Of a DNA stretch of 64,000 bases, positions 1,116 to 25,382 are shown piece after piece. A program made the translations under genes and the position numbers. This DNA is from Omnitrophica bacterium GWA2_41_15. Its GTDB lineage: Bacteria > Omnitrophota > Gorgyraeia > Gygaellales > UBA12090. The DNA lies in the NCBI GenBank assembly GCA_919902675.1, contig CAKKRH010000013.1:47239-111238 (forward strand). Direction: 5' to 3'. Each line of letters starts with the position of its first letter. Position 1 is the stretch's first letter. The notes under the pieces were generated by a model that saw nothing but the letters and a program-made list of their open reading frames with translations, searched no databases and was not told the DNA's origin.

Positions 1116-3362
1116 CTATTTTTTCTTTTCAAGAACATTCTTTAGTTTATCCAAATCTGTCACCGGAAGATTGCAAGTATGCTTTTCACAAACATAGATT
1201 GCGGGCCTGTCCGCGATTAAGCTTTGTTCTTTGGTCCAAGAAGCGAGCGATAAGATCGGATCATCTTCGCTTGATGAGCGAAACAATAATATTTTATTGG
1301 GAAGAAAATTACTGTAGATCAATGACGTTGTTTGCTCAACAAAAGTGTCAGAGGATTTTTTAGAAACTATGGCAATTTCTTTGGTCGGCGACAAAGAATA
1401 GTCTAACGCGATAAGCATCTGGGTAAACGCGGTTGGAGCGCGCGACAGATTCGCCGCGATAGACTTCAATGAATTTTCTGCCGCGTATTCAAAATCTTTA
1501 TTCAAAGTCATGCGGTTAAGTCTTAACAGAACCAGGGCGGCCATGGAATTTCCTGACGGCAAGGCGCCGTCATAATATTCCTTGGGGCGGCTCTCAAGAA
1601 TCAACTCCGCGTCCGCCGCTGAAAAGAAAAATCCGCCGGCCGGCTTGTCTTCGAATAAGCGCGTCATTTCTCCGGCCAGGTTGACGGCCTCCTTAAAATA
1701 AATAACTTCAAACGTCGCCTCATATAAATCCAAAAGCCCTTCTATAAGGAAAGCGTAATCAGCGAGAAACCCCGGAATACCGGCCGAATCATCCCTGAAA
1801 CGATGCAGGACCCCGGAGTCTTTTGTTTTCAAGGTATTTAGAATAAAATCCGCGGCTTTCTTAGACGCGGAAAGATATCGGGCTTCATGCAAGATCTTAC
1901 CTCCAAGCGCCAAGCTTGATATCATCAGGCCGTTCCAATCCGTAAGAACTTTATCATCCCGGTGAGGCCGTAATCTTTTCTCGCGCTCAAGAAAAAGCTT
2001 TTGTTTTGAAACGGACAGAATAATTCCCGTGTCCTTTAATGACTTCTTAAAATACTCTGCCGTCTCTTCAATAGTACGGCTGATTGATAAGACATTCTTG
2101 CGCTCAAATTCATCGCGCGGGTCGTTAACTACATTGCCATTATCTTTAATCCCATAATGATAGCTGAATAATTCTCCCGCCTCTTTGCCTAAGACATCGA
2201 TGATCCCGCTTTTTGTCCAGACGTAATACGCGCCTTCTTTCTTCTTTTCCGGATATTTACTGTCAGGAGCGCTGTCGGCGTCTTCAGCTGAATAAAAACC
2301 GCCCTCAAGCGAAGTCATATCCTTAAGCACATAATCAAATATGTCCCTTGCCGCTTGAGCATACTTTTCCTTTTTAGTTATTTGATAGGCCTCAAGATAG
2401 GCTTTTGCCAGCATCGCCTGGTCATAGAGCATTTTTTCAAAGTGCGGCAAAAACCACTCCCTATCGGTAGAATACCTGTGAAATCCCCCGCCTAAATGGT
2501 CATGGATACCGCCGTCCGCCATATGGCTTAAGGTATTCTCAACCATCTCAAGGGCCTTTTTATTCCCTGTCTTGTAATAATAGCGCGAAAGCAATGAAAG
2601 CGTATGTGGAGAAGGGAACTTGGGGGCGATGCTAAATCCCCCATAGGTAGAATCGTATTCAGACGATAATCTCTCAAAGGCGCTGTCAAGAACCGTCTCC
2701 GGAACAACTTCTTGCGCTTTTAAGATAATAGACAAATTCTTCAGCTCATTCGTTAACTGTCCTGCTGATTGCGCGATTTCGCCTCTCTTGTTCTTCCAGG
2801 AATCTATGATAGACAAGAATAGCTTTTTTAAATAACCAGGGGGAAAGTAGGTGCCGCCGTAAAACGGTTTTTTATCTGGGGTGAGGAAGACATTCAGCGG
2901 CCATCCTCCGGAACCGGTCATAGCCTGCACGGCATTCATATAGATTGAATCAATATCAGGGCGCTCTTCACGGTCAACTTTTATCGCGACAAAAGACCGG
3001 TTAAGAATTTCGGCAATTTCAGGATTAGAATACGACTCCTCCTCCATCACATGACACCAATGACAGGTAGAGTAGCCAACAGAGAGGAATATGGGCTTAT
3101 CCTCCTTTTTTGCTTTCGCGAATGCCTCATCAGCCCACGGATACCAATCCACGGGATTATGAGCGTGCTGCAGAAGATAAGGGCTCTTCTCCTTAATGAG
3201 ACGATTAGTAAAACTCTCAGCCTTAACCACAGCAGCCTCCAGGATAAAAACAAATAAAATCAGATACCTCACAACTATATCAAATGCTTTACATACAAAG
3301 ATATATACTGCTTCTTCATATTTTGTTGATAAAATAGAACCGTCCCTTTTCCCAACAGGCAA
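1116..3362 (-). CDS. Thioredoxin-domain protein of the YyaL/DUF255 (SSP411-like) family
   Basis: 748-aa ORF with [38 protein letters not shown] and a long alpha/alpha-toroid-like C-terminal region. The real start may be the GTG at 3272, which would give a signal-like [18 protein letters not shown]. Confidence 0.85.
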
Positions 3363-3518
3363 TCTTAATTATAATATAAACGATTTGGCATTACTACCAA
3401 AAATTTAAGGCAACCCGCGGTGTTATGGAAATCTCCGTAAGACCGCGTGTTGGAAAAAAGATTAGGGAATTATGAAAGAGGGATTACGCGGATTTGGGCG
3501 ATAAAACAGCTTTGTCAC

Positions 3519-3803
3519 CTATCCGCAAAGCTTGAGCTTATTCTCTCTGGTAAGGCCCTTAATGCGGGATTCCCGCTTTTGGGCTTGGGATCTAGTGGGG
3601 TGTTCTTCGGAATGGATGAGTTTTACCGGCCAGCGAAATCTCGTATATCTGCCGCCGTTGCCTTCATTATGGTCTTTTACTCGACGAGGAAGGTTGTTGG
3701 TGACTCCGGTATAGAGCGTTTTATCACGGCACTCGATTATATAGACGTGCCAGGATATGTGAGGCAGGTGCTCCATGAAACGTGTGTTATATGTGGAAGG
3801 CAC
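3519..3803 (-). CDS. Small GIY-YIG nuclease family protein, copy 1 of 3
   Basis: WHVYIIECRDKTLYTGVTNNLPRRVKDHNEG...QAQKRESRIKGL is the GIY-YIG (YhbQ/UPF0213-like) signature. The likely true start is MEHLPH at 3776. Nearly identical at DNA level to 5823..6080 and 9430..9717. Confidence 0.8.
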   Translation of the reverse strand: MPSTYNTRFMEHLPHISWHVYIIECRDKTLYTGVTNNLPRRVKDHNEGNGGRYTRFRWPVKLIHSEEHPTRSQAQKRESRIKGLTRENKLKLCG

Positions 3804-3859
3804 TTCGCCCCCTTCGGGGGCTCAGTGCCCAATTTTTCGCCGAGAGGCGAAAAATTGGG
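3800..3859 (-). promoter_or_regulatory. Conserved double-hairpin leader upstream of GIY-YIG copy 1
   Basis: First hairpin: GCCCCC-TTC-GGGGGC (3807..3821), nested in CACT/AGTG. Second hairpin: a perfect 14-bp stem, CCCAATTTTTCGCC (3828..3841) / GAGA loop / GGCGAAAAATTGGG (3846..3859). The same sequence recurs at 9714..9773. Confidence 0.5.
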
Positions 3860-4114
3860 GTAGCTGGCTTTCGGACTTTAGGAACTTAATGATCAGCCAA
3901 CCGACGCCGTTTAATCCGTTGTATTATCAAACCGCATCCTGCTAAACTGCGAATATGCGACTTTACAAATTGGCAATTCAATTCGCAATCTGTAAAAATA
4001 GTATCGTATAGGGTATTGTATAGGAATCAGAAGCCCGATTGCGTATAAAAAGAACGTAACCCTTTGAAAATCCAATGCTTAATTTTTATACGATTCCCGG
4101 CAATGCGTATAAAA

Positions 4115-5605
4115 CTACTGGTATTCGATCACCGCGGCCAAGGCTGTCACGACTTCTTCAATCGTCTGCGGTGAAGCCTTACCGATAAATTTCACGAATT
4201 TCTGATAATCAACGCCTCTGACCTGCAAAACATCGACTGCGGATACCTTACTGAGATTATTTTGCGCATCCGGTTCGATTTTAACGTGCCAAATATTCCC
4301 CGCGAACGCCTGTTTCCATTCCGTGATGGGGCCAACGATCTTTATCGGTAATTTGCCTATGCCGTCAGAGCTGATAACGAGAACGGGCCTGTTTTTCTTG
4401 ATTTCCGCGCCAACTGCCGGATCGAGCTTTACTTCCCAAATCTCACCACGTTGAGGAATATTGATTTTACTGCTCAAAGAAGTCTCCTGCCTGCCAAGCG
4501 GATCTGGTGTGGTCATTATCATAGTCTGGTGCGGCCTTCTCCGCTTGCTGGGCAAGGATCCTTCGTCTCTCTTCAAGGAAAGCGGGGTCTTGTCCTCGAT
4601 CTTCTCGCCCAATAGTGTTTCGGCTTCGGATTGGCCGAGCAAAGATTCAGCAAAAGCTTTATAGACGTTTTGCTTCAACCACTCCGTCCTTTCAACAGGC
4701 AAAGGATTGGGTTCTTGTCGTTTCCATCCCATCTTATTAATGCATCTGAACCATTGGACGCAATATGACTCCGAGATCATATCCAACTCTTTAAGCCGGT
4801 ATAAAATCGATTGCATGCTCATTCCGAATTTCTTCTTCAAAATAAGCAACTCTTGCAGATCAATGGCCGTTCTTTTGTCGCCAACTTCGCGCGCGATCCA
4901 TTCTTTTGGAGCCAGAAATGCCGCTCCAAAGCGAAATGCGGCCTTTTCTTCATCGACTGACTGCGTTATTTTCAAGACCAAATGGCCTAATTCATGAGCC
5001 AAGTTTAATCGCTGTCTTTCTCCGGAAGTTCCTTTTTTGACGACGATGGCTACGCCTTTGACGTGATGATCCTCATATGCGACTGCGGCCATTCCATCGA
5101 ATTTATCATTCGCATCAACTTCCAAAATATGAATAAGCTTGTTCTCTAAGATTCCGGTGATGCTGGATATCTGATCTTTACCCAAGTTCCATTCGACGCG
5201 AATAGAATCAGCGGCTTTCTCGACTTCATCCAATCTGTTTATATGAAATTTCTGTATAGGAACATTCAGCGTCGCGGTGGGACAAACAAGATTCTGAATT
5301 TTTAACCGCTCTTCCAGACTTTCCTTAACAAGGTTTTCGATGCGCGATTGTTCCTTCTTTCTCAAAGCAGATCTCTTCCGGTAAGCAATGAACTCTATAC
5401 GGTATTTGGGTTCGGAGAGCAATTGAATCGTCTTCAGATTGAATGCGCTGGCGATCTTGGCTAAAACAGGGGCTGAAGGCTGATCGAGGCCTAACTCATA
5501 TTTTGAAATAGCCTGCTTCGTGACCACTCCACCGATGTGGGCCACTAATTCATCCAGAGACCATCCTCTGGACAAACGCAATTGTTTGATTTTTTGAGCT
5601 AACAT
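4115..5605 (-). CDS. Single-chain fusion: XRE-type HTH + ImmA/IrrE (M78, COG2856) metallopeptidase + MazF/PemK-like toxin domain
   Basis: N-terminus LAQKIKQLRLSRGWSLDELVAHIGGVVTKQAISKYELG is an XRE HTH. AHELGHLVL is the HEXXH motif. C-terminus RGEIWEVKLDPAVGAEIKKNRPVLVISSD...VSAVDVLQVRGVD is MazF/PemK. There is no stop codon between the domains. The start is set at the ATG at 5605 (SD GAGGGA) because the first 11 codons of the tracked ORF cover the promoter. Confidence 0.75.
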   Translation of the reverse strand: MLAQKIKQLRLSRGWSLDELVAHIGGVVTKQAISKYELGLDQPSAPVLAKIASAFNLKTIQLLSEPKYRIEFIAYRKRSALRKKEQSRIENLVKESLEERLKIQNLVCPTATLNVPIQKFHINRLDEVEKAADSIRVEWNLGKDQISSITGILENKLIHILEVDANDKFDGMAAVAYEDHHVKGVAIVVKKGTSGERQRLNLAHELGHLVLKITQSVDEEKAAFRFGAAFLAPKEWIAREVGDKRTAIDLQELLILKKKFGMSMQSILYRLKELDMISESYCVQWFRCINKMGWKRQEPNPLPVERTEWLKQNVYKAFAESLLGQSEAETLLGEKIEDKTPLSLKRDEGSLPSKRRRPHQTMIMTTPDPLGRQETSLSSKINIPQRGEIWEVKLDPAVGAEIKKNRPVLVISSDGIGKLPIKIVGPITEWKQAFAGNIWHVKIEPDAQNNLSKVSAVDVLQVRGVDYQKFVKFIGKASPQTIEEVVTALAAVIEYQ

Positions 5606-5628
5606 AGTTAATTCCCTCATCAGTTGAC

Positions 5629-5657
5629 AATATACCATATCTTATTACATTTGTCAA
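5629..5657 (-). promoter_or_regulatory. Sigma70-type promoter with flanking inverted repeat, for the XRE-ImmA-MazF gene
   Basis: On the minus strand: TTGACA (5657..5652), a 17-nt spacer, then TATATT (5634..5629). GTTGACAA and TTGTCAAC form an inverted repeat around the -35/-10 elements, plausibly an operator for the HTH. Confidence 0.55.
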
Positions 5658-5822
5658 CCGCTATAATTTCTTGGCATTGGACCATTCTCTTGACCATTTT
5701 TAAAAGATATGCTTCTTAATTTACTCCGGATTGTCGAAATTACGTTAAGCGCATCCACACCTCTAAAATAGTCGCTGTCCATATTTATTCCGCTTGAGCT
5801 AAACGAGAGCTCGCATAGTCGC

Positions 5823-6080
5823 CTATCCGCAAAGCTTGAGCTTATTCTCTCTGGTAAGGCCCTTAATGTGGGATTCCCGCTTTTGGGCTTGGGATCTACT
5901 GGGGTGTTCTTCGGAATGGACGAGTTTTACCGGCCAGCGAAATCTCGTATATCTGCCGCCGTTGCCTTCATTATGGTCTTTTACTCGACGAGGAAGGTTG
6001 TTAGTGACTCCGGTATAGAGCGTTTTGTCACGGCACTCGATTATGTAGACGTGCCAGGGCGCAAGAGGCAGGTGCTTCAT
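5823..6080 (-). CDS. Small GIY-YIG nuclease family protein, copy 2 of 3
   Basis: 85 aa with the same WHVYIIECRDKTLYTGVTNNLPRRVKDHNEG core. It begins 22 bp after the fic stop and lacks the hairpin leader of copies 1 and 3. Confidence 0.8.
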   Translation of the reverse strand: MKHLPLAPWHVYIIECRDKTLYTGVTNNLPRRVKDHNEGNGGRYTRFRWPVKLVHSEEHPSRSQAQKRESHIKGLTRENKLKLCG

Positions 6081-6102
6081 AATTTATGGTATATAACTAT
6101 TT

Positions 6103-7104
6103 TTAATTCAGGCGGTATCGAACGGCCCTTGCCGCGCCTTCTCTGGTGACGATGCCCGAACGGACAAGCGGACTAATGAGCTGATTGACGCGGGCGCGAT
6201 TGATCTTCATAGTTTTCCTGATTTCTGGCGCGCCTAAAACATCTTTTCGTTTTAACAAATCCAAAAGCTCTTCCTGTTTAGGCGTCAACGAAATCCCTTG
6301 CAACCGAAGTGTCCCGGCCTTGATCCTGTTTTGTGCATCCTCATGCGCCCACGCCAAACCTTGGGCAACATATTCCACCCAGCGCGTAAAGTCCCGATCC
6401 ATGTCACGTGTCTGCTGGATCATGTCATAATAACGAGGCCGATCCTGCGCAAAGAAATCATCAAGGCCAAGGGTGCAAAGAGGATCAAAACCCTTTTCCC
6501 AAAGAAGCCACTGCCCGGCCGCGCGAGCCACGCGGCCATTGCCATCCACAAAAGGATGGATCGTCAGAAACTCGTGCTGAAAGATGGCACTACGGATAAC
6601 CAGATGCAAGGATTCATCCTTCGCCCAAGCAAAAAGGGCTTTCATGCGGCCCGCAACCTGCGCGGGAGGCGGCGGAGTAAAAATAACTTTATTGCGGGCA
6701 TCCACGATATAGTTCTGGACACTGCGATACTGGCCCGTTCGATCTTTGGCCAAAAGCCCCTTGATCATGCGGCCATGCACAGCCAAAAGCCCAAGTTCAG
6801 TGACCGGCTTATGTTTGGTCTTTAATATCTGCCGCATGGCTTCAACGCAATTGGCGACCTCTGTCTTCTGCTTTTCTTCAACCAAAAGATCCTTGCCGTC
6901 AACCACGGCCCTGACCTGCGCCAAAGACAGGAGATTGCCTTCAATCCATGTGGATGAATGAACGCTCCGGGCAAAAGCATCCCTCTCCAAAGGGGCCTTA
7001 ACAGACACTTTCAGCCGCGAGCTTCTGACAAGCGCACCCGTGACAGCAATCTGCTCAAACAGTTTTAAAAGGTGTGGCGTTATCCGATATTGGGCTTTAA
7101 ACAT
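6103..7104 (-). CDS. Fic/DOC family protein with an N-terminal inhibitory helix motif and a C-terminal winged-helix
   Basis: HPFVDGNGRVARAAG is the Fic core HxFx(D/E)GNGRxxR. STWIEGN fits the (S/T)xxxE(G/N) autoinhibition motif. The C-terminus LTPKQEELLDLLK...RARVNQLISPLVRSGIV is HTH-like. Confidence 0.85.
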   Translation of the reverse strand: MFKAQYRITPHLLKLFEQIAVTGALVRSSRLKVSVKAPLERDAFARSVHSSTWIEGNLLSLAQVRAVVDGKDLLVEEKQKTEVANCVEAMRQILKTKHKPVTELGLLAVHGRMIKGLLAKDRTGQYRSVQNYIVDARNKVIFTPPPPAQVAGRMKALFAWAKDESLHLVIRSAIFQHEFLTIHPFVDGNGRVARAAGQWLLWEKGFDPLCTLGLDDFFAQDRPRYYDMIQQTRDMDRDFTRWVEYVAQGLAWAHEDAQNRIKAGTLRLQGISLTPKQEELLDLLKRKDVLGAPEIRKTMKINRARVNQLISPLVRSGIVTREGAARAVRYRLN

Positions 7105-7271
7105 AATTCAAGTTTACCATATCGTATAGGTATTGTATAGGGAATTGTATAGGGCGCCAGCAATAGAGCCGCTTCTACCAATCCATATTCGCTGAATTGT
7201 CCCATTCATGGCATAAATGTTCGAGAAACTCTTTCATATCTTCTACTGAATTCATTGCCTGACGGTAAATA

Positions 7272-7410
7272 CTCACAAGGAACTCACAAGACGCTTTATC
7301 TAACCTTATCGCGCTGAGTAAGTTACGAAACAATTACGCTTTCTATATTTTTTGTGGAATTGTTTTGCAACCCAATACTGAGCAACGAGTTACATAGAGC
7401 GTCTTTTAAT
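7272..7410. repeat. 139-bp imperfect palindromic repeat, copy A (attC-like or MITE-like)
   Basis: Direct repeat of 9183..9322 with scattered substitutions. The arms AAGACGCTTTATCTAAC ... GTTACATAGAGCGTCTT are inverted repeats. Inner arms pair as well (GAAACAATTAC / GGAATTGTTTT). Confidence 0.8.
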
Positions 7411-7491
7411 TTTTATAATCAAACTTTGCGCGCTCAAAACACTGCATCATCGCCTTATGGGCGCCGTGGATATCCCCGATGGCAAGAGTTC

Positions 7492-8406
7492 TCATTCCCA
7501 CCCTCTCGGAAACTTCCATGTTTTATCGAAATTTCCATTTTCGTTAAGCGCCATAATAGGCTCAATAAGAAAATTTTCTATTTCCTTAGCCGTAGTAGAC
7601 AAAGTTTCCGGCGCGTGTTGAATATCACCTTTTTTCAAAAACGCGCTCCAAAGCGTCTGCCTGTCGGATTTTTCATCATAAATTTCATTAGCAAACAAAG
7701 GTTTTTTATTAGGGACATCTGTTTTTCTGTTATTGAACGTTTTCTTTACCGCGCTAGCAATATTTGCCCCCTTAAATTCAAACTGCCTCATCATAAGCCA
7801 GATATCGTAAAAATCTTTCATCCTGCTATTTAAAAGACCGAGTTTAATCATAGCCTCAAACTTTTCGCTGATAACACTCTCTTGGGGATATCCATTTAAA
7901 TGCGGTTTTGGAAAATCCAGAATCACCGGATAATCAATGACCTTGGTCCTTGGATATACAATATCACCAAAGCCCACGTCAATCTGCATCGGGATCCTCG
8001 CGCGGTCTAAAAAACCGGTGAATTTTACACGCACCCCTTCATAGTCCGCGTCTTCTTTGATCTTCGTTCCTTTGACTGTTTGAGAATCAAAATTAAGCCC
8101 GTCAAGATCCACGCTGATGTCGCATACCTCTTTCATCACTTTTTCGATAGTCGTGACCTCATTATCAAAACGGGCTAAGAAATCAATATCAAGAGTTGTG
8201 CGCCTGTCAGGTATCTGCCATACAGCGAATAAAAGCGCGCCTTTTAATACAAACTTATCAGCGTATTTTGATTTGCTGAACCGGTAGAGAAATCTCTCCA
8301 TGCCGTAATACTGCATTACTTCCGCGAATGGGCGATTTGTTTCTTTCGCTTTATTTTGTAGCTGTGCCTTAACGGAAGCCTCTATGTTTTTTACTTCTCT
8401 CTTCAT
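7492..8406 (-). CDS. abiEii: AbiEii/AbiGii-family nucleotidyltransferase toxin (type IV TA / abortive infection)
   Basis: MERFLYRFSKSKYADKFVLKGALLF...RRTTLDIDFLAR is the typical AbiEii N-terminal nucleotidyltransferase fold signature. It overlaps the upstream AbiEi gene by 4 nt. Confidence 0.8.
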   Translation of the reverse strand: MKREVKNIEASVKAQLQNKAKETNRPFAEVMQYYGMERFLYRFSKSKYADKFVLKGALLFAVWQIPDRRTTLDIDFLARFDNEVTTIEKVMKEVCDISVDLDGLNFDSQTVKGTKIKEDADYEGVRVKFTGFLDRARIPMQIDVGFGDIVYPRTKVIDYPVILDFPKPHLNGYPQESVISEKFEAMIKLGLLNSRMKDFYDIWLMMRQFEFKGANIASAVKKTFNNRKTDVPNKKPLFANEIYDEKSDRQTLWSAFLKKGDIQHAPETLSTTAKEIENFLIEPIMALNENGNFDKTWKFPRGWE

Positions 8407-9005
8407 AGCATGGTTTCTATTATTGGTTTTATAATTCTGTCAACACGGCAAATCTTCGCGTATTCCATAATATCCTTTGGCTTGACATGCTTTTCAGTAA
8501 TGGCAACCTTCAGCGCCTCTCTGGCAACATTCAGCCCGATTCTATTACGAAATTTAAAACAATCGGCAACACTCTTTGCGAGGCTATAAATTTTTACCGT
8601 ATGGCCTTCGATCTCATGTTTTTCGACTCCGGCCTTCCAAGTGTCGGGAGCAAACCTATAAAATCTAACAGGTGGATATTTAATTCTGTTTTCATGAGTG
8701 CCTCGGGGTATCGCGACATCAACGTATTTGGGTATTTCATTTGTTGCTTCATGAAAAGCAAGCGCCGAAAGAAGGCATACTGTCCCCTTAGGAATTTTAA
8801 TTGAGATAGCCACAAGGTCGGGATTGGAAAACGACATGCCTTCTGAGAGACTATAAAGCCCTCTGTCCAGTTTCTGAATATTATTGTTATCAAGGCTGAC
8901 TTTGATGAGCGCTTTATTGAAACCCGCTTCATCAAGTTCAGAAAAACTGGCCATTCCGCCTTTTTGTTTGAGAAATTGAATAAGTTCCGCTTCTTTTGAG
9001 CCCAT
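8403..9005 (-). CDS. abiEi: AbiEi-family antitoxin / transcriptional regulator
   Basis: The N-terminal winged-helix LIQFLKQKGGMASFSELDEAGFNKALIKVSL...LDRGLYSL and translational coupling to AbiEii support the call. Confidence 0.75.
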   Translation of the reverse strand: MGSKEAELIQFLKQKGGMASFSELDEAGFNKALIKVSLDNNNIQKLDRGLYSLSEGMSFSNPDLVAISIKIPKGTVCLLSALAFHEATNEIPKYVDVAIPRGTHENRIKYPPVRFYRFAPDTWKAGVEKHEIEGHTVKIYSLAKSVADCFKFRNRIGLNVAREALKVAITEKHVKPKDIMEYAKICRVDRIIKPIIETML

Positions 9006-9182
9006 TCGTATCGCTCCTTATCTATTTACACTTGTGCATAAGTGTATAGCATTTGGGATAGCATGTCAAGCGGTATTTTTCTAACGGCTGGAAATGATAC
9101 CATATATCCTTACCCCCTCTTTTATAAGGGGAAGTTAAGGAAATTGCTTTGTATAAGTAAAGAGGTTTTTGAAAGATTAAAG

Positions 9183-9322
9183 AATCACAAAAATCACAAG
9201 ACGCTTTATCTAACCTTATCGCGCTGAGTGAGTTACGAAACAATTACGCTTTCTATATTTCTTTCGCGGAATTGTTTTGTAACCTAATGCTGGGCAATGA
9301 GTTACATAGAGCGTCTTTTAAT
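9183..9322. repeat. 139-bp imperfect palindromic repeat, copy B
   Basis: Same element as 7272..7410. Together the two copies bracket the abiEi-abiEii pair. Confidence 0.8.
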
Positions 9323-9429
9323 ATATTAATGCCATCATAACTAACTGCTTATCAATTAGTTAGGAAACTTTTTTTCCGCGATAAATATTTCACAACTATT
9401 TATCAAAAAGACATGAAGGGTATCTCTGG

Positions 9430-9717
9430 TTATCTCTCGCATAATTCGAGCTTCTTGGCTCTGGTAAGGCCCTTGATGTAGGATTCCCGCTTTTGGGCTT
9501 GGGATCTACTGGGGTGTTTTTCGGAATGGACGAGTTTTACAGGCCAACGGAATCTCGTATATCTGCCGCCGTTGCCTTCATTATGGTCTTTTACTCGACG
9601 AGGAAGGTTGTTGGTGACTCCGGTATAGAGCGTTTTATCACGGCACTCGATTATATAGACGTGCCAGGATATGTGAGGCAGGTGCTCCATGAAACGTGTG
9701 TTATATGTGGAAGGCAC
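9430..9717 (-). CDS. Small GIY-YIG nuclease family protein, copy 3 of 3
   Basis: 95 aa with the same core as copies 1 and 2. The likely start is at 9690. The hairpin leader is repeated at 9714..9773 (14-bp stem at 9742..9755 / 9760..9773). Confidence 0.8.
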   Translation of the reverse strand: MPSTYNTRFMEHLPHISWHVYIIECRDKTLYTGVTNNLPRRVKDHNEGNGGRYTRFRWPVKLVHSEKHPSRSQAQKRESYIKGLTRAKKLELCER

Positions 9718-10396
9718 TTCGCCCCCTTCGGGGGCTCAGTGCCCAATTTTTCGCCGAGAGGCGAAAAATTGGGGTCGCTGGTGGCTTGGTAAAGGTAAAA
9801 GGTTTATTATTGTTAGATGGATTTCCCTGCCAAATACTACCGCGACTTATACTATTACTGCTACTCCTCCGCCTAAAAATTGCTCTTTAGGAAATAAAAT
9901 CAGATTCGCGAGGCAATCTCTCGGAAAGACTCAAAAAACGCTTTCTGAAATGATTAAGCATCCCCGGAGCTTAATCAGCCGTTATGAACAAGACAAAATC
10001 AGAAAACCCAATACCAAAGTCCTGCTTGACATCGCAAAGTCTCTGAAGGTCAGCCCTGATAAGCTAATCTCTATCCAGCAATTCCAACCAATTGGAAATA
10101 AGGCAGAAATTGATAAGCTTTATGCCTTTCTCAAAACCCCGCATAACTTCGGCAAAAAACTAAGAGACTTACGCCTTCGGGCAAATATTGAACAAAAGGC
10201 CTTGGCCCTGGAAGTCGGGATTAACCGCGAAAGTATCCGGCGCTATGAAAGGAATATCACCCGGCCAAGCAAAGCGATTTTAGCCAAAATCATAGAGGCT
10301 TTAAAAGACTCTTCCCGCAAGCTGCAAGAGAAATATTACCATAATAAAGGCGCTGACTCAAGTAAATTTGTAGCAAAAATTGAAAGGAGGAATTGA
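9689..10396 (+). CDS. Tandem XRE-type HTH protein (two HTH_XRE domains); start uncertain
   Basis: The two HTH units are IRFARQSLGKTQKTLSEMIKHPRSLISRYEQDK and LRDLRLRANIEQKALALEVGINRESIRRYERN. The only in-frame ATG upstream of the first HTH lies inside the GIY-YIG repeat, antisense to the GIY-YIG start. The 5' 200 nt may therefore be repeat-derived or untranslated. Confidence 0.55.
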   Translation: MKRVLYVEGTSPPSGAQCPIFRREAKNWGRWWLGKGKRFIIVRWISLPNTTATYTITATPPPKNCSLGNKIRFARQSLGKTQKTLSEMIKHPRSLISRYEQDKIRKPNTKVLLDIAKSLKVSPDKLISIQQFQPIGNKAEIDKLYAFLKTPHNFGKKLRDLRLRANIEQKALALEVGINRESIRRYERNITRPSKAILAKIIEALKDSSRKLQEKYYHNKGADSSKFVAKIERRN

Positions 10397-10398
10397 AA

Positions 10399-10692
10399 AT
10401 GAGAATAAGCAAATTATGGCTGTTTATAATGATATCGTTTATTGCCGGTTTTGTCTGGGGGCGGGTATCTACCGCTGACTTGCCTCAACGTTACCCTGAG
10501 ACAAGAATAGCCATTGGCGGAGATGAGCAAATGGTTTCGCTGGATATCTTAAGGGATAAAGATAATATCCGGATCATTGACCAGGAGACCGGCCAGCTGA
10601 TATTTGAATACAACCGTTACAAAGAAACAGATAGAGGCGCATTCAGGGAATTTGAAGCGGTGCTTATAGAAATTATGGACGGGGACGGTTAG
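10399..10692 (+). CDS. Small membrane-anchored protein, unknown function
   Basis: An AGGAGG SD precedes the ATG at 10399. MRISKLWLFIMISFIAGFVWG forms an N-terminal TM helix. I recognise no motif. Confidence 0.5.
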   Translation: MRISKLWLFIMISFIAGFVWGRVSTADLPQRYPETRIAIGGDEQMVSLDILRDKDNIRIIDQETGQLIFEYNRYKETDRGAFREFEAVLIEIMDGDG

Positions 10693-10876
10693 AGATTTCT
10701 CTTAAATTCAGCCGGTTATTGATTATCTTGCCTTCCTTGGCCGGGGATATTTCCAAATAGTACTGGGTGCCGTCGCTTTTAAGCATTACACGGATATAGC
10801 CTTTCCGGTGCTTCTTGACCATTCGCCAGCCTTCAAGGATCTCTTCTTCGTCAAAGCTGATATCTTCTCTTTCCAT
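10673..10876 (-). CDS. Hypothetical 67-aa protein
   Basis: ORF only. It has no clear SD and no recognisable motif. Confidence 0.25.
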   Translation of the reverse strand: MEREDISFDEEEILEGWRMVKKHRKGYIRVMLKSDGTQYYLEISPAKEGKIINNRLNLREISNRPRP

Positions 10877-11152
10877 AGGCGTATTTTAGGCCTTATATCT
10901 TAACCGAAGAGTATCTTGCTTTGGGCGCGATAACCGGGTAGTTATCGCCCATAAAGGAATTTACCGCTCTTTTCGCCTTTTTTGCCTTTATCCGCAGGAA
11001 ACGGACAAACAGCCGGCAGAAAGCCTTAGCGCTCATAGAATACCCCTTTTTTTAGCCGTTTTTCAGGCTCTTGAATGAAAAGGAGAAGAACACCCTTCTT
11101 CCCCACAGTAAACAAAGTATAACATATTATTGCCATTTTGTCAAGTTACATA

Positions 11153-11181
11153 TTGACAAAACATATTATTTGTTGTATACT
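11153..11181 (+). promoter_or_regulatory. Consensus-like sigma70 promoter for the XRE-cupin / two-component operon
   Basis: TTGACA (11153..11158), a 17-nt spacer, then TATACT (11176..11181), 24 nt before the ATG at 11205. It is flanked by repeated AACATATTAT(T)TG motifs and by GTATAACA...TGTTGTATAC dyad symmetry. Confidence 0.6.
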
Positions 11182-11204
11182 TTAGATAAGAAAGGCTGTG
11201 TTAT

Positions 11205-11762
11205 ATGGATATAGGAGAAATCATAAAGAAACTGCGCGCTGAAGCGGGATTGACCCAGGCGCAATTAGGAGAGAAGTCCGAGCTTAGCTTTACCACTATC
11301 TCTAAGCTGGAAAAAGGCTCACTTACCGGTACTATCCCCACCCACCGCAAGCTGGCCCAGGCCTTCAACCTTAGCCTATCGCAATTCTACCAGGGGCTGG
11401 ATGAGCCGGAAAAAGAGCCTCTAAAAGTTACCTCCACCTCAAGGCCGCAGGCCGATATATTTTATTACAACGATAAAGCCATATCCCAGATACTGCTTAA
11501 AAAGGCCGGCCGGCATAATATGCTTCCGGAATTAGTGCGCCTTGAGCCGCGCGGGGAAACCGCCTTAGAGCAAAAGCCCAGGGGCGTTGAGCAGTTTATC
11601 TATGTTTTGGAAGGGAAAATTAAGCTGAAAGCAGGCGGTGATACCTTCAGGCTCAAAAAAGGAGAATGTATCTATATTGATGCCTTTCTTCCCCACACAA
11701 TGAAGAATGACTCAAGCGCCGCGGCAAAGATACTCAAGGTAACCTCACCGGCCACATTATAG
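11205..11762 (+). CDS. XRE-family HTH + cupin-domain transcriptional regulator
   Basis: The N-terminal IKKLRAEAGLTQAQLGEKSELSFTTISKLEKG is an XRE HTH. The C-terminal EQFIYVLEGKIKLKAGGDTFRLKKGECIYIDAFLPHTMKN is cupin-like. Confidence 0.8.
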   Translation: MDIGEIIKKLRAEAGLTQAQLGEKSELSFTTISKLEKGSLTGTIPTHRKLAQAFNLSLSQFYQGLDEPEKEPLKVTSTSRPQADIFYYNDKAISQILLKKAGRHNMLPELVRLEPRGETALEQKPRGVEQFIYVLEGKIKLKAGGDTFRLKKGECIYIDAFLPHTMKNDSSAAAKILKVTSPATL

Positions 11763-11786
11763 GCATAGAAAGAAAGGGACAACACT

Positions 11787-12152
11787 ATGGCTAAGGAAAA
11801 AATAGTTATCTGCGATGACAATGAGGGAGTGCGGGAATCATTAAGACTGATCTTAGAGGACAATTATCAGCTGGCATTTGCCGATAACGGATTCGCGGCG
11901 ATTGAACAGGTTAAAAATGATTCGGTAAGCCTGGTGCTTTTGGACATCAAGATGCCCCGGCTAAACGGCATTGATACGCTTAAGGAAATACTTAAAATAA
12001 AGCCGAAAACGAAAGTTCTCTTCGTGACCGGTTATCAGTATACAGACGCGGCAAAGGACGCGCTCAAGAATGGGGCTTTGGATTACATCGTCAAGCCCTT
12101 TGAACCGCAGGAGCTGAAAGACGCGGTCAAAAAGGCCCTGGACAAAAAGTGA
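11787..12152 (+). CDS. Single-domain response regulator (CheY-like receiver)
   Basis: KIVICDDNEGVRE...LVLLDIKMPRLNGIDTLKEI...KVLFVTGY...DYIVKPF has the receiver-domain acidic pocket, the phospho-accepting Asp and the conserved Lys. Confidence 0.9.
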   Translation: MAKEKIVICDDNEGVRESLRLILEDNYQLAFADNGFAAIEQVKNDSVSLVLLDIKMPRLNGIDTLKEILKIKPKTKVLFVTGYQYTDAAKDALKNGALDYIVKPFEPQELKDAVKKALDKK

Positions 12153-14263
12153 ATTATTACCTCTTTATTTACCGGCTCTCCCTCTTCCTCACCTTTTTCA
12201 CCACCTTTCTGTTGGGATTCGTTGTTCTGATAAAAGGCAGGCATAATAAAACCAGCTGGCTGCACTGCGCCTTTTCATTTTCTATCGCGGTATGGAGCTT
12301 TCTCCAGGGATGGATGAGCTTTGCTGTTTATCAAAGCGAGGCCCTCCTTATCGGAAAGGTTATGTGCGTAGGGGTTATTTTGATCCCTCCGCTTTTTCTG
12401 CACTTTGTTTTTTCCTTCCTGGAAATCAAAAAAAGAAAGATAATCCTCCTCTCTTATTTACCGGCTGTCATATTTTTAGCGGGGTTGCCTTCCAAGTTGT
12501 TTGTGGATATCACCTATCGCCCGGACATCCGCTTTACAGTCAGCCCGGGGGTGATGTATCATTTTTTCCTGGGTTACTTTATCTTTCTTGCCGGATTAAG
12601 CCTCTATGAATTATACCGCGCCTACGCTAATTCTACCGGCGTAAAACGCAACCAATTAAAATACATGTTCTGGGGCACCCTAATCGGTTTTATTACCGGA
12701 GGCTCAAATTTTCTCTATGTCTATGACAATGCTGTTTCCCTGATAAACCCATATGCCACCTTTGGCGTTCCGCTATACGCGATAATAATCGCCTATGCTA
12801 TCGGTAAACACCGGCTTATGGACATAAATCTGATTATCCGCAAAGCTGTTATCTACGGAATAATCTACAGTTTATCTCTTGCCATATTCAGCATTATAGT
12901 TATCCTGATCGGGCAATGGATAATCTCCGGAAGCATTGACAAAAGAGTAATCAGCCTTTACATATTCGCGGTTTGTATTGTTGTAGTCATAGTCAAGCCG
13001 TTGGATGAATTCCTCACCAGGCATACGGACAAGTTCTTATTCCGAGGGGAATACGAATACCACCGCACCTTAAGAAAGGCGTCTTTAGGTATGATCCGTA
13101 TAAGAAGGCTGGATAAACTGCTTTACCTGATCGTTAAGATAATCACCCGGCAGGTAAAGGTAAGACATGCCGCCATATTTCTTTGGGATAAAGACGAAAA
13201 TGCCTACATAGTTAAGGCCGCCAGGGGAAAACCCAAGATACCCAAGGACCAGATGAAAATTATCTCCAGGAACCAATTGATTCGTTACCTTATCAGGAAT
13301 AAGGATTCTATTGTTTGCGAGGAGTTAAAGCTGGCGCTTAAGCAAAAACCGTCAGATACCCTGGAGGCAGTGATTAAGGAAATGAACCGGCTCAATGTGA
13401 GCGTATGCGTGCCCAGCTTTCTAAAAGACAAACTGACCGGCTTTCTTTTATTGGGTGAGAAATTATCCGGGGATATGTATTCGCGGGAGGACTTAAGCCT
13501 GTTTAACACCCTCTCTGTTCAGGCGACGCTGGCTATTGAGAACGCCCAGGCCTATGAGGAGATTACAAAAGCTAAGGAGAAACTTTTTGAGGTGGAAAAA
13601 TTCGCCAGCATAGGCAGGCTGGCCGGAGGCATTGCCCACGAGATAAAAAACCCTCTGGCATCAATCAAAACCTTTACCGCCTATCTGGATAAGAAATTTG
13701 ATGACCCGGAATTCCGAAAGAAATTTCAAAAGATAGTCGGTTCGGAGGTGGATAGGATAAACCATATTGTAGAGCAGTTAGTTACCTACGCCCACCCCAA
13801 GCGCCTGGTAACGGAGATTGTGGGCCTACACAAGATAGTTGACGAGACATTTTCTCTGCTTGAGAATGAGCTTAAAGAAAAGAATATCCGGGTAAAAAAA
13901 TATTATTTACCCGGCAACGCGGAAATCTCCGCTGATCCTAAGCAGTTAAAGCAGGTATTCCTTAACCTGTTTTTAAACAGTATCGCGGCAATGAAAGACA
14001 ATAACGGCAGGATAAAAGAACTTTCGGTAGCCATAGAGAAAGAAAGGGGGAATTTAAGGGTGAGAATTTCTGACACTGGCGAGGGCATAGCCAAAGAGCA
14101 AATTCCCTCAATATTTGACCCTTTCTTTACCACCAAAGAAAACGGATCGGGGTTAGGGCTGTCAATCGTTAAGAGCATTGTTGAAAATCACAATGGAAAA
14201 ATATCCGTGGAGAGCGAATTAGGTAAAGGGACGAGTTTTTGGATAAGGCTACCCTTAAAGTAA
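12149..14263 (+). CDS. Membrane sensor histidine kinase (N-terminal multi-TM sensor, GAF-like middle, HisKA + HATPase_c)
   Basis: About 7 predicted TM helices occupy the first 290 aa. The H-box is GGIAHEIKNPL. The N, G1 and G2 boxes are LFLNSIAAM, DTGEGI and GSGLGLSIV. The gene overlaps the response-regulator stop by 4 nt. Confidence 0.9.
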   Translation: MNYYLFIYRLSLFLTFFTTFLLGFVVLIKGRHNKTSWLHCAFSFSIAVWSFLQGWMSFAVYQSEALLIGKVMCVGVILIPPLFLHFVFSFLEIKKRKIILLSYLPAVIFLAGLPSKLFVDITYRPDIRFTVSPGVMYHFFLGYFIFLAGLSLYELYRAYANSTGVKRNQLKYMFWGTLIGFITGGSNFLYVYDNAVSLINPYATFGVPLYAIIIAYAIGKHRLMDINLIIRKAVIYGIIYSLSLAIFSIIVILIGQWIISGSIDKRVISLYIFAVCIVVVIVKPLDEFLTRHTDKFLFRGEYEYHRTLRKASLGMIRIRRLDKLLYLIVKIITRQVKVRHAAIFLWDKDENAYIVKAARGKPKIPKDQMKIISRNQLIRYLIRNKDSIVCEELKLALKQKPSDTLEAVIKEMNRLNVSVCVPSFLKDKLTGFLLLGEKLSGDMYSREDLSLFNTLSVQATLAIENAQAYEEITKAKEKLFEVEKFASIGRLAGGIAHEIKNPLASIKTFTAYLDKKFDDPEFRKKFQKIVGSEVDRINHIVEQLVTYAHPKRLVTEIVGLHKIVDETFSLLENELKEKNIRVKKYYLPGNAEISADPKQLKQVFLNLFLNSIAAMKDNNGRIKELSVAIEKERGNLRVRISDTGEGIAKEQIPSIFDPFFTTKENGSGLGLSIVKSIVENHNGKISVESELGKGTSFWIRLPLK

Positions 14264-14324
14264 GTAATATTATAGCTATTTCTTAAGACTGCTACCAACA
14301 CACTGAAAGCCAGGTTTAGACAAT

Positions 14325-16808: not shown

Positions 16809-16814
16809 GATGAC

Positions 16815-17786
16815 TTATCGTTCTTTTGTATGATATGCTAAACGACGTTCTTTTAGTAAATCTTCAAATAATTTGAACGCGACAGATTCTTTATTATTCA
16901 ATATAGCGAGCTTTATTGCATCACGGCACACATGATCAATTTCAGCGTGGCTAAGCCCTTCAGCCATTTTTGCAGCCCTTTCTGAAGGAAAATCTTTACT
17001 GCAAAAAGTGCCCAGTAGATTTTTGATTAATCTTAATCGATCATCTTGTTCTGGCAACCCATAATGAAGCACATCGTCGAATCTCCGGAATAAGGCTCGG
17101 TCAAGCAGTCGTAGGTTATTAGTAGCCGCAATAATCAAATTATTCGAAGCATCTTTATCAATAAACTGCAAAAAAGCATTCAACACTCGACGCATTTCAC
17201 CAACATCATTTTCTAAATTCCTTTCGCCACCAATAGCATCAAACTCATCAAATAAATAAACCCCTGGCATCTCACGTATTTTATCAAAAATTTGCCTAAG
17301 CTTTGCGCCAGTTTCCCCCATAAATTTTGTAACTAATCGATCCATTTGAATAATATGTAATAGCTGATTTAATTCAAATGCCAAAACTTTAGCTGTCATA
17401 GTTTTACCCGTTCCTGGGGCACCAGCTAAAAGTATTTTCCTGCGATGAGACAAACCATGGCTTTTAAGCTTATTTTGCTGTCGAAACTCAGTAACAATCC
17501 GCTCAATTCTCTGCTTTAATTGATTATTAACTACTAAAGACGATAATGGAAGTCCCGGCTGTTCAGTAAAAATAAGCCCATTGAGATCCTGAGGAAAGAC
17601 AAGGATATTCTTTTGAGAGGTTTCTTTCTTTGCTTTATCAACAAGCTCGCGAATTTCATGAGCCAATTCACTGTGCCCCTGACGAGCTTCATGGGCTGCA
17701 ATCTGCAAAACAGTTGCAAAAAACTGCTCAGAATTGTCATTGTAGTGCGAACGAATTAAAGCTTTCACCTGTTCTGACGTAGCCAT
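16815..17786 (-). CDS. AAA+ ATPase (classical clade); IetA-like
   Basis: Walker A is GAPGTGKT and Walker B is VYLFDEFDAIG. Sensor-1 is IIAATNN and the Arg-finger region is ALFRRFD. The start is set at the ATG at 17786, which is preceded by AAGGAG. Confidence 0.85.
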   Translation of the reverse strand: MATSEQVKALIRSHYNDNSEQFFATVLQIAAHEARQGHSELAHEIRELVDKAKKETSQKNILVFPQDLNGLIFTEQPGLPLSSLVVNNQLKQRIERIVTEFRQQNKLKSHGLSHRRKILLAGAPGTGKTMTAKVLAFELNQLLHIIQMDRLVTKFMGETGAKLRQIFDKIREMPGVYLFDEFDAIGGERNLENDVGEMRRVLNAFLQFIDKDASNNLIIAATNNLRLLDRALFRRFDDVLHYGLPEQDDRLRLIKNLLGTFCSKDFPSERAAKMAEGLSHAEIDHVCRDAIKLAILNNKESVAFKLFEDLLKERRLAYHTKER

Positions 17787-18170
17787 TTTCTGCTCCTTAA
17801 ATGGTGTCGGTATTCGAGAACAACAACATTTAAAATACTTCAATTATATATTATAATAAACTAACATAAATAAAGCTATAACTTTCATACCTACATCATT
17901 AGGACTTCAAGTATTGTATCCCAAAACCCATCCAAGACCAGTTAAAACCCCCGGACTGGTTTATCTCTTTAGGATTAAGTATTGTGCCCCAGGATTCCGC
18001 ACCGGGATTCCTATTCCTCTATCTATCCCCCCTATAAACTCCCGCACTTGTTCTTGTTTTAGTCTTCAAGACTCCGTTGGCATCTCTATGGGAAGCGCCT
18101 GTGGAGGTGCAGCCTATCAAGCTGGCAAAAATAAAAGAAATAATAAGAATATAAAGATACTTTATCCCCT

Positions 18171-18611
18171 TCATTTATCAGGCGCATCCTTCTTTAAGTC
18201 TTTTTCTATCCAGGTCGCCTTTCCATCTACTATATTGGGGCAATTCCAGACTATACCTTCTTCAATATCCAAAACAACCGCTGGCATTCTCAAGTCGGAA
18301 TCCTGCCATTCCAACATTCTTACTATATATTTCTTCTTTTCCTGTGAGCTATCCCCTTGTTTTCCTAAATCCGTTTTAACCCACAAAGGATTACCGTCTT
18401 GTAAATTCTGGCAAGTCCAGATTATACCCTTATAGCTGTCTAGAATAATAGCCGGGATCCTTGTATTTGCTATTGCCCTGCCGTTTTGCATTATAAGAAC
18501 ATACCTGCCTTGCTGCAATTCATTTGAGGTGGGTTCAGCCCTTAGAATGCGATTTGGATAAAAACCAATACCTGCGCATAAAAACATCATAACAAGCAAT
18601 ATTTTCTTCAT
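18171..18611 (-). CDS. Secreted protein with an internal tandem duplication, unknown function
   Basis: The signal peptide is MKKILLVMMFLCAGIG. The two repeated modules are RYVLIMQNG..IPAIILDSYKGIIWTCQNLQDGNPLWVKTDLGK and KYIVRMLEW..MPAVVLDIEEGIVWNCPNIVDGKATWIEKDLKK. Confidence 0.6.
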   Translation of the reverse strand: MKKILLVMMFLCAGIGFYPNRILRAEPTSNELQQGRYVLIMQNGRAIANTRIPAIILDSYKGIIWTCQNLQDGNPLWVKTDLGKQGDSSQEKKKYIVRMLEWQDSDLRMPAVVLDIEEGIVWNCPNIVDGKATWIEKDLKKDAPDK

Positions 18612-18687
18612 AAGCCTCCTCCTTTTGTTTGATTATACCATTAGGCAGACTATTAGGATAGAACTGTCTTTTTTGTCTTCTTTCTCA

Positions 18688-20803: not shown

Positions 20804-21121
20804 AAACCTCCCCCTATTATTTTAAGCTCTCAAAATATTTTCGCTTTTATATGTTTTCAATTTTGATTCTGAATAAATCATTAATTTTATCATAGCAACT
20901 ATATATTGTATCTTAGATAAGAGGATAACACATTATATAGTATTTGTCAAGGCAAAAAATTTGTGGTGGTGGATTTCTATTCTTAAAGCAATTTCACTCC
21001 TGATTCGGTTACGCTAAATTGTAGAACATTATGCCGCCACCTTCTTATATCGACACTTTTGAAAATTAATAAAGGTGGCGGCGGAATATTTTCAGCTCCA
21101 CCGCAATATTTCTACAATCTT

Positions 21122-25378: not shown

Positions 25379-25382
25379 AATT

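Follow-up and report, generated by a model that had tools for sequence, protein, structure and literature searches.

Defence and toxin-antitoxin islands linked to tRNA genes are already known, as are their growth by accretion of blocks that lack an integrase and the insertion of cargo by a single crossover. Small GIY-YIG proteins have been described in two groups that are relevant here: the Ssn nucleases, which are single-domain proteins of 94 aa whose genes are flanked by hairpin targets (PMC11893778), and the UPF0213 structures 1ZG2 and 1YWL, which are bacterial stand-alone members of the Slx1 family, of unknown function (PMC1564403). Here we describe a stretch of 64,000 nucleotides from Omnitrophica bacterium GWA2_41_15 (contig CAKKRH010000013.1, positions 47,239 to 111,238 of the forward strand; hereafter the window, numbered from its first letter), in which three copies of a small GIY-YIG gene lie between defence and toxin modules. 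The region is the inner end of a hypervariable, tRNA-His-linked defence and toxin-antitoxin island in a Candidatus Omnitrophota genome, and we propose that the array was probably built and reshaped by homologous recombination between copies of conserved genes, the nuclease gene being a passive landmark. Corresponding loci in relatives are designated by numbers preceded by L.

Three copies of a GIY-YIG gene lie between unrelated modules

A repeat search of the window finds a single family of three direct 300-nt copies, at 3524-3823, 5828-6127 (86%) and 9438-9737 (95%), and a degenerate 23-mer derived from the gene has exactly three matches where 0.03 would be expected by chance. Alignment including the flanks refines the limits of the units, which measure 270-350 bp and are all on the minus strand in direct orientation (Table 1). 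Each contains an intact open reading frame (ORF) that matches the Pfam GIY-YIG domain PF01541 (E-values of 2e-21 to 4e-21) over residues 9-81 or 18-90, with no second domain. An earlier reading made from the letters alone (the sequence-only reading) had proposed that three copies of such a gene partition the modules of this region, in the order copy 3, AbiEi/AbiEii, Fic, copy 2, XRE-ImmA-MazF, copy 1, all on the minus strand; the partition is confirmed by the repeat search, the 23-mer count and the Pfam matches, and the order by profile matches to the cargo. The gene length of 85-95 aa given there holds at its lower end, in that the ATG common to all copies, which is also the start used by NCBI, yields products of 85, 85 and 86 aa; the lengths of 94-95 aa rest on an upstream GTG. 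These proteins are recorded as MEK6564195, MEK6564197 and MEK6564201 in the Candidatus Omnitrophota metagenome-assembled genome (MAG) GCA_038041365.1, and an exact-protein look-up of the copy 2 product returned nothing on record.

Table 1. Features of the locus in the window, and corresponding features in relatives
Feature	Position	Strand	Remarks
GIY unit 1	3519..3866	-	psi 3856-3866, hairpin 1 3829-3858, hairpin 2 3800-3828, ORF 3519-3776 (85 aa)
GIY unit 2	5820..6092	-	ORF 5823-6080 (85 aa); no hairpins; begins 22 bp past fic stop
GIY unit 3	9430..9780	-	psi 9770-9780, hairpin 1 9743-9772, hairpin 2 9714-9742, ORF 9430-9690 (86 aa)
Crossover window (+78..+139 of GIY ORF)	9552-9613 in copy 3; 5942-6003 in copy 2
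Putative single 3,610-bp module	5942..9613	-	3' GIY, E135, AbiEi/Eii, E135, SoFic, 5' GIY
Rosmer-like module	4115..5638	-	single 507-aa ORF: HTH_3, Peptidase_M78 (ImmA, RmrA-like) and PemK/MazF
Fic-domain protein	6103..7104	-	SoFic type (7e-48), profile match
AbiE system	7492..9005	-	AbiEi 8403-9005 (PADLOC 5e-65), AbiEii 7492-8406 (PADLOC 5e-100)
E135 copy A	7284..7410	-	about 175 nt upstream of fic
E135 copy B	9194..9322	-	108 nt after GIY copy 3 stop, about 185 nt upstream of abiEi
Pre-hp conserved non-coding module	3867..3996 (core 3885-3928)	-	GATAATACA.CGGATTAAACGGCGTCGGTTGGCTGATCAT..., ends in tRNA-end mimic
Integrated island, about 35 kb	9781..44552		between tRNA-His and GIY unit 3; absent at this site in relatives
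Large serine recombinase	43029..44564	+	Resolvase, Recombinase, Zn_ribbon_recom; 3' end overlaps tRNA-His 3' end by 12 nt
tRNA-His(GTG)	44553..44629	-
Layout of L005			tRNA-His - hairpins - AbiEii-like cassette - psi - hairpins - GIY
Layout of L092			tRNA-His - Vsr/Dcm/GHKL - E135 - MNT/HEPN - GIY - Fic - pre-hp - psi
Layout of L094			E135 - AAA_14/DUF4143 - E135 - GIY
Layout of L096			type III restriction-modification - pre-hp - psi - hairpins - GIY
Layout of L183			tRNA-His ... E135 - FicA - GIY - E135 - AbiE - E135 - FicB - pre-hp - psi - AAA_14
E135 in other relatives	L091 6897-7024; L092 6860-6987; L093 1192-1319; L094 36-163, 1474-1601
E135 in L183	4073-4202, 5791-5919, 7703-7829

Copies 2 and 3 have the form of reciprocal hybrids

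Where the sequence-only reading saw only scattered substitutions between the copies, exact alignment shows that the substitutions fall in blocks. The first 230 nt of units 1 and 3 contain a single difference and the final 118 nt contain 21, and unit 2 differs from unit 1 at 15 positions in the first 34 nt and at six in the next 236 nt. Counted from the shared ATG, copy 3 equals copy 1 and departs from copy 2 at all 25 informative sites between -23 and +77. Between +140 and +269 it is copy 2 that equals copy 1 and departs from copy 3, at 24 variable sites, with the reverse grouping at none; the other six variable sites of this interval are private (four to copy 1; at two, copies 1 and 2 differ as well). 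Copies 2 and 3 both switch within one 62-nt stretch inside the ORF, +78 to +139, that is identical in all three copies, and they thus have the form of reciprocal hybrids, with 25 sites on the 5' side, 24 on the 3' side and one shared breakpoint. Copy 2 joins a 5' part of an allele that we label K type to a 3' part of copy-1 type, the 3' third of unit 3 comes from a diverged allele, and the two copies are spaced 3,610 bp apart.

Copies 1 and 3 have in common a leader of two hairpins, for which the DNA fold z-score is about -6, and copy 2 stands without a leader 22 bp behind fic; both had been seen in the sequence-only reading. Its further view that copy 2 had lost the leader does not survive, in that the 5' end of copy 2 and the junction fic-22 bp-GIY belong to an allele type other than that of copies 1 and 3. 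This would fit an arrival of the 5' end of copy 2 with an inserted module rather than a deletion.

The window copies and the allele of a sister strain form a cluster with dS of 0.06-0.22, whereas dS to the nearest other genomes is 0.45 or more. Together with the block mosaic, this supports the original suggestion of recent duplication or gene conversion: the copies are recent paralogues that have exchanged sequence. In the sister strain itself (L001/L090), which is 95% identical over window positions 5732..3237, the flanks of locus 1, the GIY gene at locus 1 is of the other allele type over a patch that runs from about -20 to +215, and this patch indicates gene conversion between copies.

A proposed origin of the array

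We favour a history in which homologous recombination of the RecA type, without nuclease activity, drove the assembly of the array. In a first step, a unit composed of the hairpins, the GIY gene and the short tRNA-like edge called psi (described below) would have been duplicated on either side of the Rosmer-like module, either by site-specific integration at the att region of tRNA-His or by homologous recombination. In a second step, an integrase-less module of 3.6 kb (GIY, E135, AbiEi/Eii, E135, SoFic, where E135 is a palindrome described below) would have recombined with the upstream resident GIY gene by a single crossover within +78..+139, having arrived in circular form, or as a circle cut open somewhere in the homologous stretch. 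The resident partner would have been a copy-1-like GIY gene with a hairpin leader, and the incoming allele would have lain 22 bp behind fic and ahead of E135-AbiE-E135. Campbell-type insertion of this kind would, as a third step, leave the reciprocal hybrids, copy 3 being made of the resident 5' part and the module 3' part and copy 2 of the module 5' part and the resident 3' part. The fourth step, the arrival of the 35-kb serine-recombinase island at the 3' end of tRNA-His, may have fallen at any time relative to the other three.

A second locus may record the same kind of event at a different gene. In L183, whose DUF748 core gene is 65% identical to that of the window, FicA is of the L092 type up to +372 and of the window type thereafter, FicB is the reverse, and the switch lies within +373..+428. 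It is possible that the same module entered this genome through fic, in which case the anchor need not be GIY.

Several points weigh against this history. L183 is present in one assembly only and its hybrid Fic proteins are found on that contig alone; each of its window-type stretches is a 100% match to the window strain, which the same metagenome also contains; and the switch intervals, at 56 and 62 nt, just reach the length at which an assembly graph with k=55 can merge its paths. L183 may thus be a chimeric graph walk, although on balance we judge it to be probably real because the contig passes consistently through both repeats. With L183 set aside, the mosaic can also be explained, less parsimoniously, by two gene-conversion tracts on copy 1, which would still be homologous recombination. 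The module has no replication or transfer genes by which it would move between cells, and the first duplication, around the Rosmer-like module, has two candidate mechanisms. Finally, a passive GIY gene accounts neither for the covariation of the hairpins and their linkage to the gene across relatives nor for the nine of 131 family loci that lie directly downstream of a tRNA gene.

A tRNA-His anchor, empty sites and variable cargo

Four features had no place in the sequence-only reading: the tRNA-His anchor, the 35-kb recombinase island, the mimic of a tRNA end at the left edge of the units, and E135. The closest relative, L010, is collinear with window positions 54786..44553 through RNase PH, Ham1, AsmA/DUF748, tRNA-Pro, tRNA-Arg, DUF748 and tRNA-His. 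A search for empty sites finds them in L010, L002 and L097, in each of which the 35-kb island is missing and the two hairpins and one GIY gene come immediately after tRNA-His; in L010 there then follow a different, 155-aa GIY-like ORF and an XRE-ImmA gene. In the window, the island that occupies this site encodes an XRE regulator, a histidine kinase/response regulator pair, IetA/IetS, a type I restriction-modification system (hsdRSM), a PD-(D/E)XK nuclease, a PLD nuclease, an IS256-family transposase, a STAND ATPase, and RepO-like and GemA-like proteins. No relatives of its serine recombinase were found in viral contigs.

Units 1 and 3 open on the left with CAGC(T/G)ACCCCA, which we term psi and whose final CCCA supplies the opening bases of hairpin 1. 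Psi matches 10 of the last 11 nt of tRNA-His of the AGCC type, found in L005, L097 and L183, and 7 of 11 in the window's own tRNA-His; beyond these 11 nt the alignment to the tRNA is not significant, about 5% of shuffles scoring as well. It precedes the hairpins wherever cargo rather than a tRNA gene lies upstream (L001, L005, L095/L096), and it is found without hairpins in L092 and L183. To the left of psi in unit 1 lies a conserved non-coding module, pre-hp, that recurs after fic (L092 9648-9720, L183 9026-9114) and before psi-hairpins-GIY (L095 at about 1068-1230, and L096). The genes that precede it differ by genome (PemK, fic and a type III res gene), and the module may form the end of a family of elements; the idea that pre-hp is a decayed tRNA-His was rejected, the likeness being confined to its last 11 nt.

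Different cargo lies between the same landmarks in relatives, including type III restriction-modification, Dcm/Vsr/GHKL, MNT-HEPN, an AbiEii-like pair and AAA_14/DUF4143. In L005 the AbiEii-like cassette, which has no integrase, stands between direct repeats of the tRNA end and hairpins. One interpretation in the sequence-only reading, that the repeated unit is a scaffold for recombination that shuffles defence cassettes, therefore holds in the sense of an effect of repeated homology, seen in the mosaic and the varied cargo, rather than of a demonstrated purpose.

The same landmarks invite a second explanation, which we consider unlikely while giving it the fullest hearing among the alternatives. 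The cassette blocks could be remnants of elements integrated in tandem at the 3' end of tRNA-His by a site-specific recombinase, either the window's serine recombinase or a lost integrase; the att region would take in the hairpins and GIY as well as psi, which would make the copies long repeats of att type, and homologous recombination would only have reshuffled them afterwards. The island with its recombinase does abut tRNA-His, the recombinase ORF overlapping the tRNA 3' end, units 1 and 3 do begin with an 11-nt mimic of that end, and the direct repeats around the integrase-less cassette of L005 are of the kind that such accretion would leave. L183 further shows an attP-like junction, psi followed by TTTAAAATAGAAAGGGTAA, that resembles the junction of tRNA-His and the recombinase end in the window, and candidate sites can be written as tRNA-His end / hp1 for attB and psi / TTCAGCATAGAAAGGG for attP (hp1 and hp2 being hairpins 1 and 2). 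For the first duplication, around the Rosmer-like module, the psi edge, the repeats of L005 and the attP-like scar of L183 would likewise favour an origin by site-specific integration. Copy 2, however, has neither psi nor hairpins, and no recombinase is encoded within 3519-9780. The breakpoint shared by copies 2 and 3 falls within the ORF, where the longest run of identity is found, as is typical of homologous recombination, the anchor in L183 is fic rather than an att site, and serine recombinases neither need nor create repeats of hundreds of base pairs.

E135 marks the starts of cassettes

E135 is an imperfect palindrome of 125 nt with 17-nt terminal inverted repeats (AAGACGCTYTATSTAAC), and its two copies in the window bracket AbiE. 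All seven known copies in the window and in L091-L094 are oriented with the genes, each 90-190 nt upstream of the gene that opens a cassette, the cassettes so headed being AbiE, Fic, MNT/HEPN, AAA_14 and GIY; E135 adjoins GIY in the window and in L093/L094. A covariance-model search of 52 sources and then of 28 viral loci found none beyond the seven known copies, and there is no match in Rfam. Covariation amounts to one compensated pair, the variation being too little to judge. Two candidate identifications were discarded: 28 exact 17-mer matches in viral contigs proved to be unrelated sequences, and as a miniature inverted-repeat transposable element E135 shows no visible target-site duplications and has all its copies in the same orientation.

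The nearest likeness is to the attC sites of integrons, with which E135 shares a bulged imperfect palindrome of about 125 nt, an orientation fixed relative to the cassettes, the bracketing of AbiE, and a motif ATGTAAC...GTTAGAT that resembles the R''/R' boxes. In contrast to attC, the pairing and conservation of E135 run 10-12 nt beyond those boxes, and, in contrast to integrons, E135 lies upstream of cassettes rather than after them and only seven copies are known. Among the window ORFs scanned (some small ORFs were left out) there is no integron integrase, the only recombination genes being those of the serine recombinase and the IS256-family transposase. E135 appears to resemble attC loosely and to misfit its box architecture, and we leave it unclassified.

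The GIY gene is a conserved gene with a structured leader

Homologues of the GIY protein at 70-92% identity are all from Omnitrophota. A profile built from 27 homologues matches the UPF0213 structures BH0048 (1ZG2, E-value 4.5e-26) and EF2693 (1YWL, 5.7e-24), and matches SLX1 weakly (6e-3 to 8e-3). Y12, Y22, G24, R32 and E69 are invariant across the 27 homologues, including all window copies, and H36 is conserved in at least 90%. By its sequence, the protein is a member of the stand-alone Slx1-like/UPF0213 group that consists of the catalytic core only, and is a predicted nuclease. Values of dN/dS are 0.04-0.25 between genomes and 0.17-0.39 among the window paralogues. All 147 other loci that carry the gene, in genomes and metagenomes, have one copy within 10 kb, the extra match in L010 being only a fragment, to the different 155-aa GIY protein. 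Relatives are rare in records of mobile elements (25 of 50,697 for phages and 77 of 72,556 for plasmids). From these comparisons we regard the gene as a conserved and selected gene of host type, mostly chromosomal and normally single-copy, and not a typical mobile gene. Literature searches on GIY-YIG genes with toxin-antitoxin islands, and on YhbQ, gave nothing directly relevant, and we know of no previous description of three UPF0213 paralogues in one locus or of a conserved hairpin leader after a tRNA gene.

In nine of 131 family loci (L010-L148), or 6.9%, a co-oriented tRNA gene ends no more than 300 nt ahead of the GIY gene, an excess of about 19-fold over the roughly 0.4% that local tRNA density would predict; the tRNAs are His, Arg in three cases, Gln in two, Lys, Asn and Ser. 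In the window and in L001, L002, L005, L010, L095/L096 and L097 the hairpins accompany the gene; as a trait of the whole family, upstream hairpins are not supported (median z of -0.13). Among these relatives the stems diverge strongly in sequence and remain fully complementary, so that the hairpin structure, acting as DNA or as RNA, must be under selection, and hairpin 2 retains a GA/GA internal loop and a loop of GAA type. In an E-value scan of 3300-10000 against Rfam, the sole match, mir-320 on hairpin 1, was judged to be due to chance.

We note that L005 has, between the tRNA-His hairpins and the AbiEii-like cassette (8919-9082), a tandem array with a 38-nt period and about four copies, alternating CGAAGTGCCTTAAT and GCGAAGAGCCTTAA, the 3' halves of two variants of hairpin 2; these may be protein-binding iterons or scars of repeated hairpin-2 events. 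We also note that a 235-aa double helix-turn-helix (HTH) ORF on the plus strand at 9689-10396 runs for its first 30 or so codons through the copy 3 leader on the opposite strand, which produces a spurious protein match to L001; its true start probably lies further downstream.

An active part for the nuclease is, in our estimation, improbable. The GIY-YIG protein might recognise and nick hp1 and hp2, and perhaps E135, as single-stranded or cruciform DNA, much like Ssn with its NTS/SRM hairpins or Slx1 on branched DNA; the breaks would stimulate or police recombination at the hotspot, making the gene a working part of cassette exchange. The linkage of hairpins and gene in the window and the relatives just named, the stems that vary and stay complementary, the retained loops of hp2, the tandem repeats of its 3' half in L005, and the presence of another long hairpin, E135, beside GIY in the window and L093/L094 would all suit such a role, for which the Ssn nucleases offer a precedent. 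The Ssn-related motif SRM (HGTCWY..YYVSBRH..WNVSBRG..RNCYNB), however, has no match in the window, and its nine matches in 148 family loci (1.78 Mb), none of them beside close relatives, are at chance level; the nearest named relatives of the protein are UPF0213/Slx1-like structures; and upstream hairpins are not family-wide. Moreover, copy 2 recombined without hairpins, as did fic as an anchor if L183 is real, and hp1, which overlaps the CCA end of tRNA-His, may instead serve tRNA or mRNA processing.

An associated and more far-reaching idea, which we consider doubtful, is that the 3.6-kb block is a new integrase-less mobile defence module that uses a host-type gene as a portable homology anchor, with the Slx1-like nuclease perhaps breaking the hairpin-flanked resident copy. 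Were this so, the module could enter any related genome carrying that gene, and UPF0213 would support a nuclease-plus-hairpin exchange of cassettes with a logic like that of Ssn and the NTS.

The sequence-only reading had also raised the possibility that the GIY-YIG unit is a selfish, homing-like gene, in effect a free-standing gene for a homing endonuclease that inserts copies of itself elsewhere in the island. GIY-YIG domains are indeed known in homing endonucleases, three copies lie within 6.3 kb, and the adjacency to tRNA genes is unusually frequent across the family, with different tRNAs at different loci. Yet the protein is a core of 80-85 aa with no DNA-binding domain, the gene is single-copy in the other loci examined (147 in number), the boundaries of the three units differ and show no fixed ends, copies 2 and 3 are hybrids with a breakpoint inside the ORF, and purifying selection with broad vertical distribution fits a host gene, all of which makes homing highly improbable.

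The layout in other assemblies

Contigs from other assemblies, which derive from Hainich samples, were found by exact-protein look-ups for Fic, AbiEii and the Rosmer-like protein. A 157-kb contig of ERZ1292620 with 79x coverage is 100% identical over 18.4 kb and has the three-copy layout, which is also present in contig_28 of ERZ1286166 (2.155 Mb); the latter differs by eight mismatches and 15 single-base gaps, a pattern from which we infer that it is a long-read assembly. Two short-read assemblies, at 99.99-100% identity, cover parts of the array: ERZ2470813 spans copies 2 and 1 and ends inside copy 3, and ERZ1300416 spans copy 1 and ends inside copy 2. This recurrence shows that the three-copy layout is real. 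A collapsed or chimeric metagenome assembly as the source of the repeats and their order, which might have been suspected from the presence of the 95% variant contig L001 in the same MAG, from the short-read contigs that end inside GIY copies and from the 225 identical nucleotides common to copies 1 and 3, has a negligible probability in view of the identical layout elsewhere, including the 157-kb and 2.155-Mb contigs.

Cargo modules and other features of the window

The N-terminal 340 aa of the 507-aa Rosmer-like protein match RmrA of Rosmer (3e-40). XRE-ImmA and PemK form this one ORF in three Illumina assemblies of the window strain, and in the 95% identical sister strain (L001, 113-1653, and L090) two frame changes produce separate genes of 395 and 99 aa; this is either a recent fusion of antitoxin/protease with toxin or a decaying copy in one lineage. 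Immediately upstream of fic on the minus strand (7132-7153) there are two tandem copies of CCTATACAAT, a motif that L092 conserves at this place, and a further copy lies at 4015-4024, downstream of PemK; the motif may represent an operator or what is left of the fic upstream region. The GIY proteins, AbiEi and the five ORFs of the island that were scanned have no match among the NCBIfam models.

A scan of the whole window at Rfam gathering thresholds finds three tRNAs only. Between tRNA-Arg and tRNA-Pro, at 45933-46310 on the minus strand, there is a gene for a 23S rRNA intervening-sequence protein (PF05635, E-value 3e-39) with no rRNA nearby. Two further pairs of direct repeats, each 87% identical, lie outside the array: one at 25960-26027 and 26632-26699 inside the type I hsdS gene, probably representing its two half-domains, and one at 60973-61082 and 62850-62959.

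Discussion

Repeated GIY genes, together with fic and E135, represent portable homology by which strains can insert, excise and convert cassettes and exchange them with one another. The locus provides a worked example, from an uncultivated phylum, of how defence and toxin-antitoxin modules may be assembled without a dedicated integrase, the homology being supplied by a small conserved gene, and it also carries a caution, that repeated 'nuclease' genes between cassettes are not necessarily mobile agents. For the UPF0213/Slx1-like family it offers two leads, namely the conserved pair of covarying hairpins that accompanies the gene in this clade and the roughly 19-fold excess of family members downstream of tRNA genes. 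E135, as an orientation-locked palindrome that marks the starts of cassettes, should be of use for mapping cassette boundaries in Omnitrophota.

Among described small GIY-YIG proteins, the closest to ours are those of the UPF0213/Slx1-like group (PMC1564403), with which it shares a single domain of 80-100 aa, the conserved Tyr, Tyr-x-Gly, Arg, His and Glu, a strong profile match, and a widespread and mostly chromosomal distribution; the three paralogues of the window and the hairpin leader after a tRNA gene set the locus apart from the other loci examined here. The Ssn nucleases (cd10448; PMC11893778) resemble it in having a small single-domain GIY-YIG gene flanked by hairpin-forming sequences in a setting prone to recombination. 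In contrast to Ssn, the SRM is missing here, two locus-specific hairpins take the place of a genome-wide repeat, and the GIY protein, a predicted nuclease, has its nearest named relatives in UPF0213.

As an island, the locus resembles other tRNA-linked islands in that a variable region extends from the 3' end of a tRNA gene with a recombinase at the junction and what may be partial copies of the tRNA 3' end at distal boundaries, in that relatives have an empty site or other defence cargo, and in that integrase-less blocks lie beside an element bearing a recombinase. It differs in that its repeats are a whole 85-aa gene with two hairpins (270-350 bp) rather than short att cores, in that one repeat has no att-like edge, and in that the event that can be resolved is a crossover inside an ORF. 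That event has its closest parallel in Campbell-type integration, as in the RecA-dependent translocatable units of the insertion sequence IS26 and the minimal mobile elements of Neisseria, where a repeat with its cargo inserts at a resident copy; the likeness extends to cargo between direct repeats, reciprocal hybrids with the same breakpoint, and stepwise growth of the array. In contrast to those systems there is no transposase, an ordinary conserved gene serves as the repeat (GIY, or fic in L183), and the circle is inferred from sequence. What is unusual here is that a complete and conserved gene for an Slx1-like nuclease, structured leader included, serves as the repeat, that the crossover is preserved in hybrid genes, and that the setting is in the Omnitrophota.

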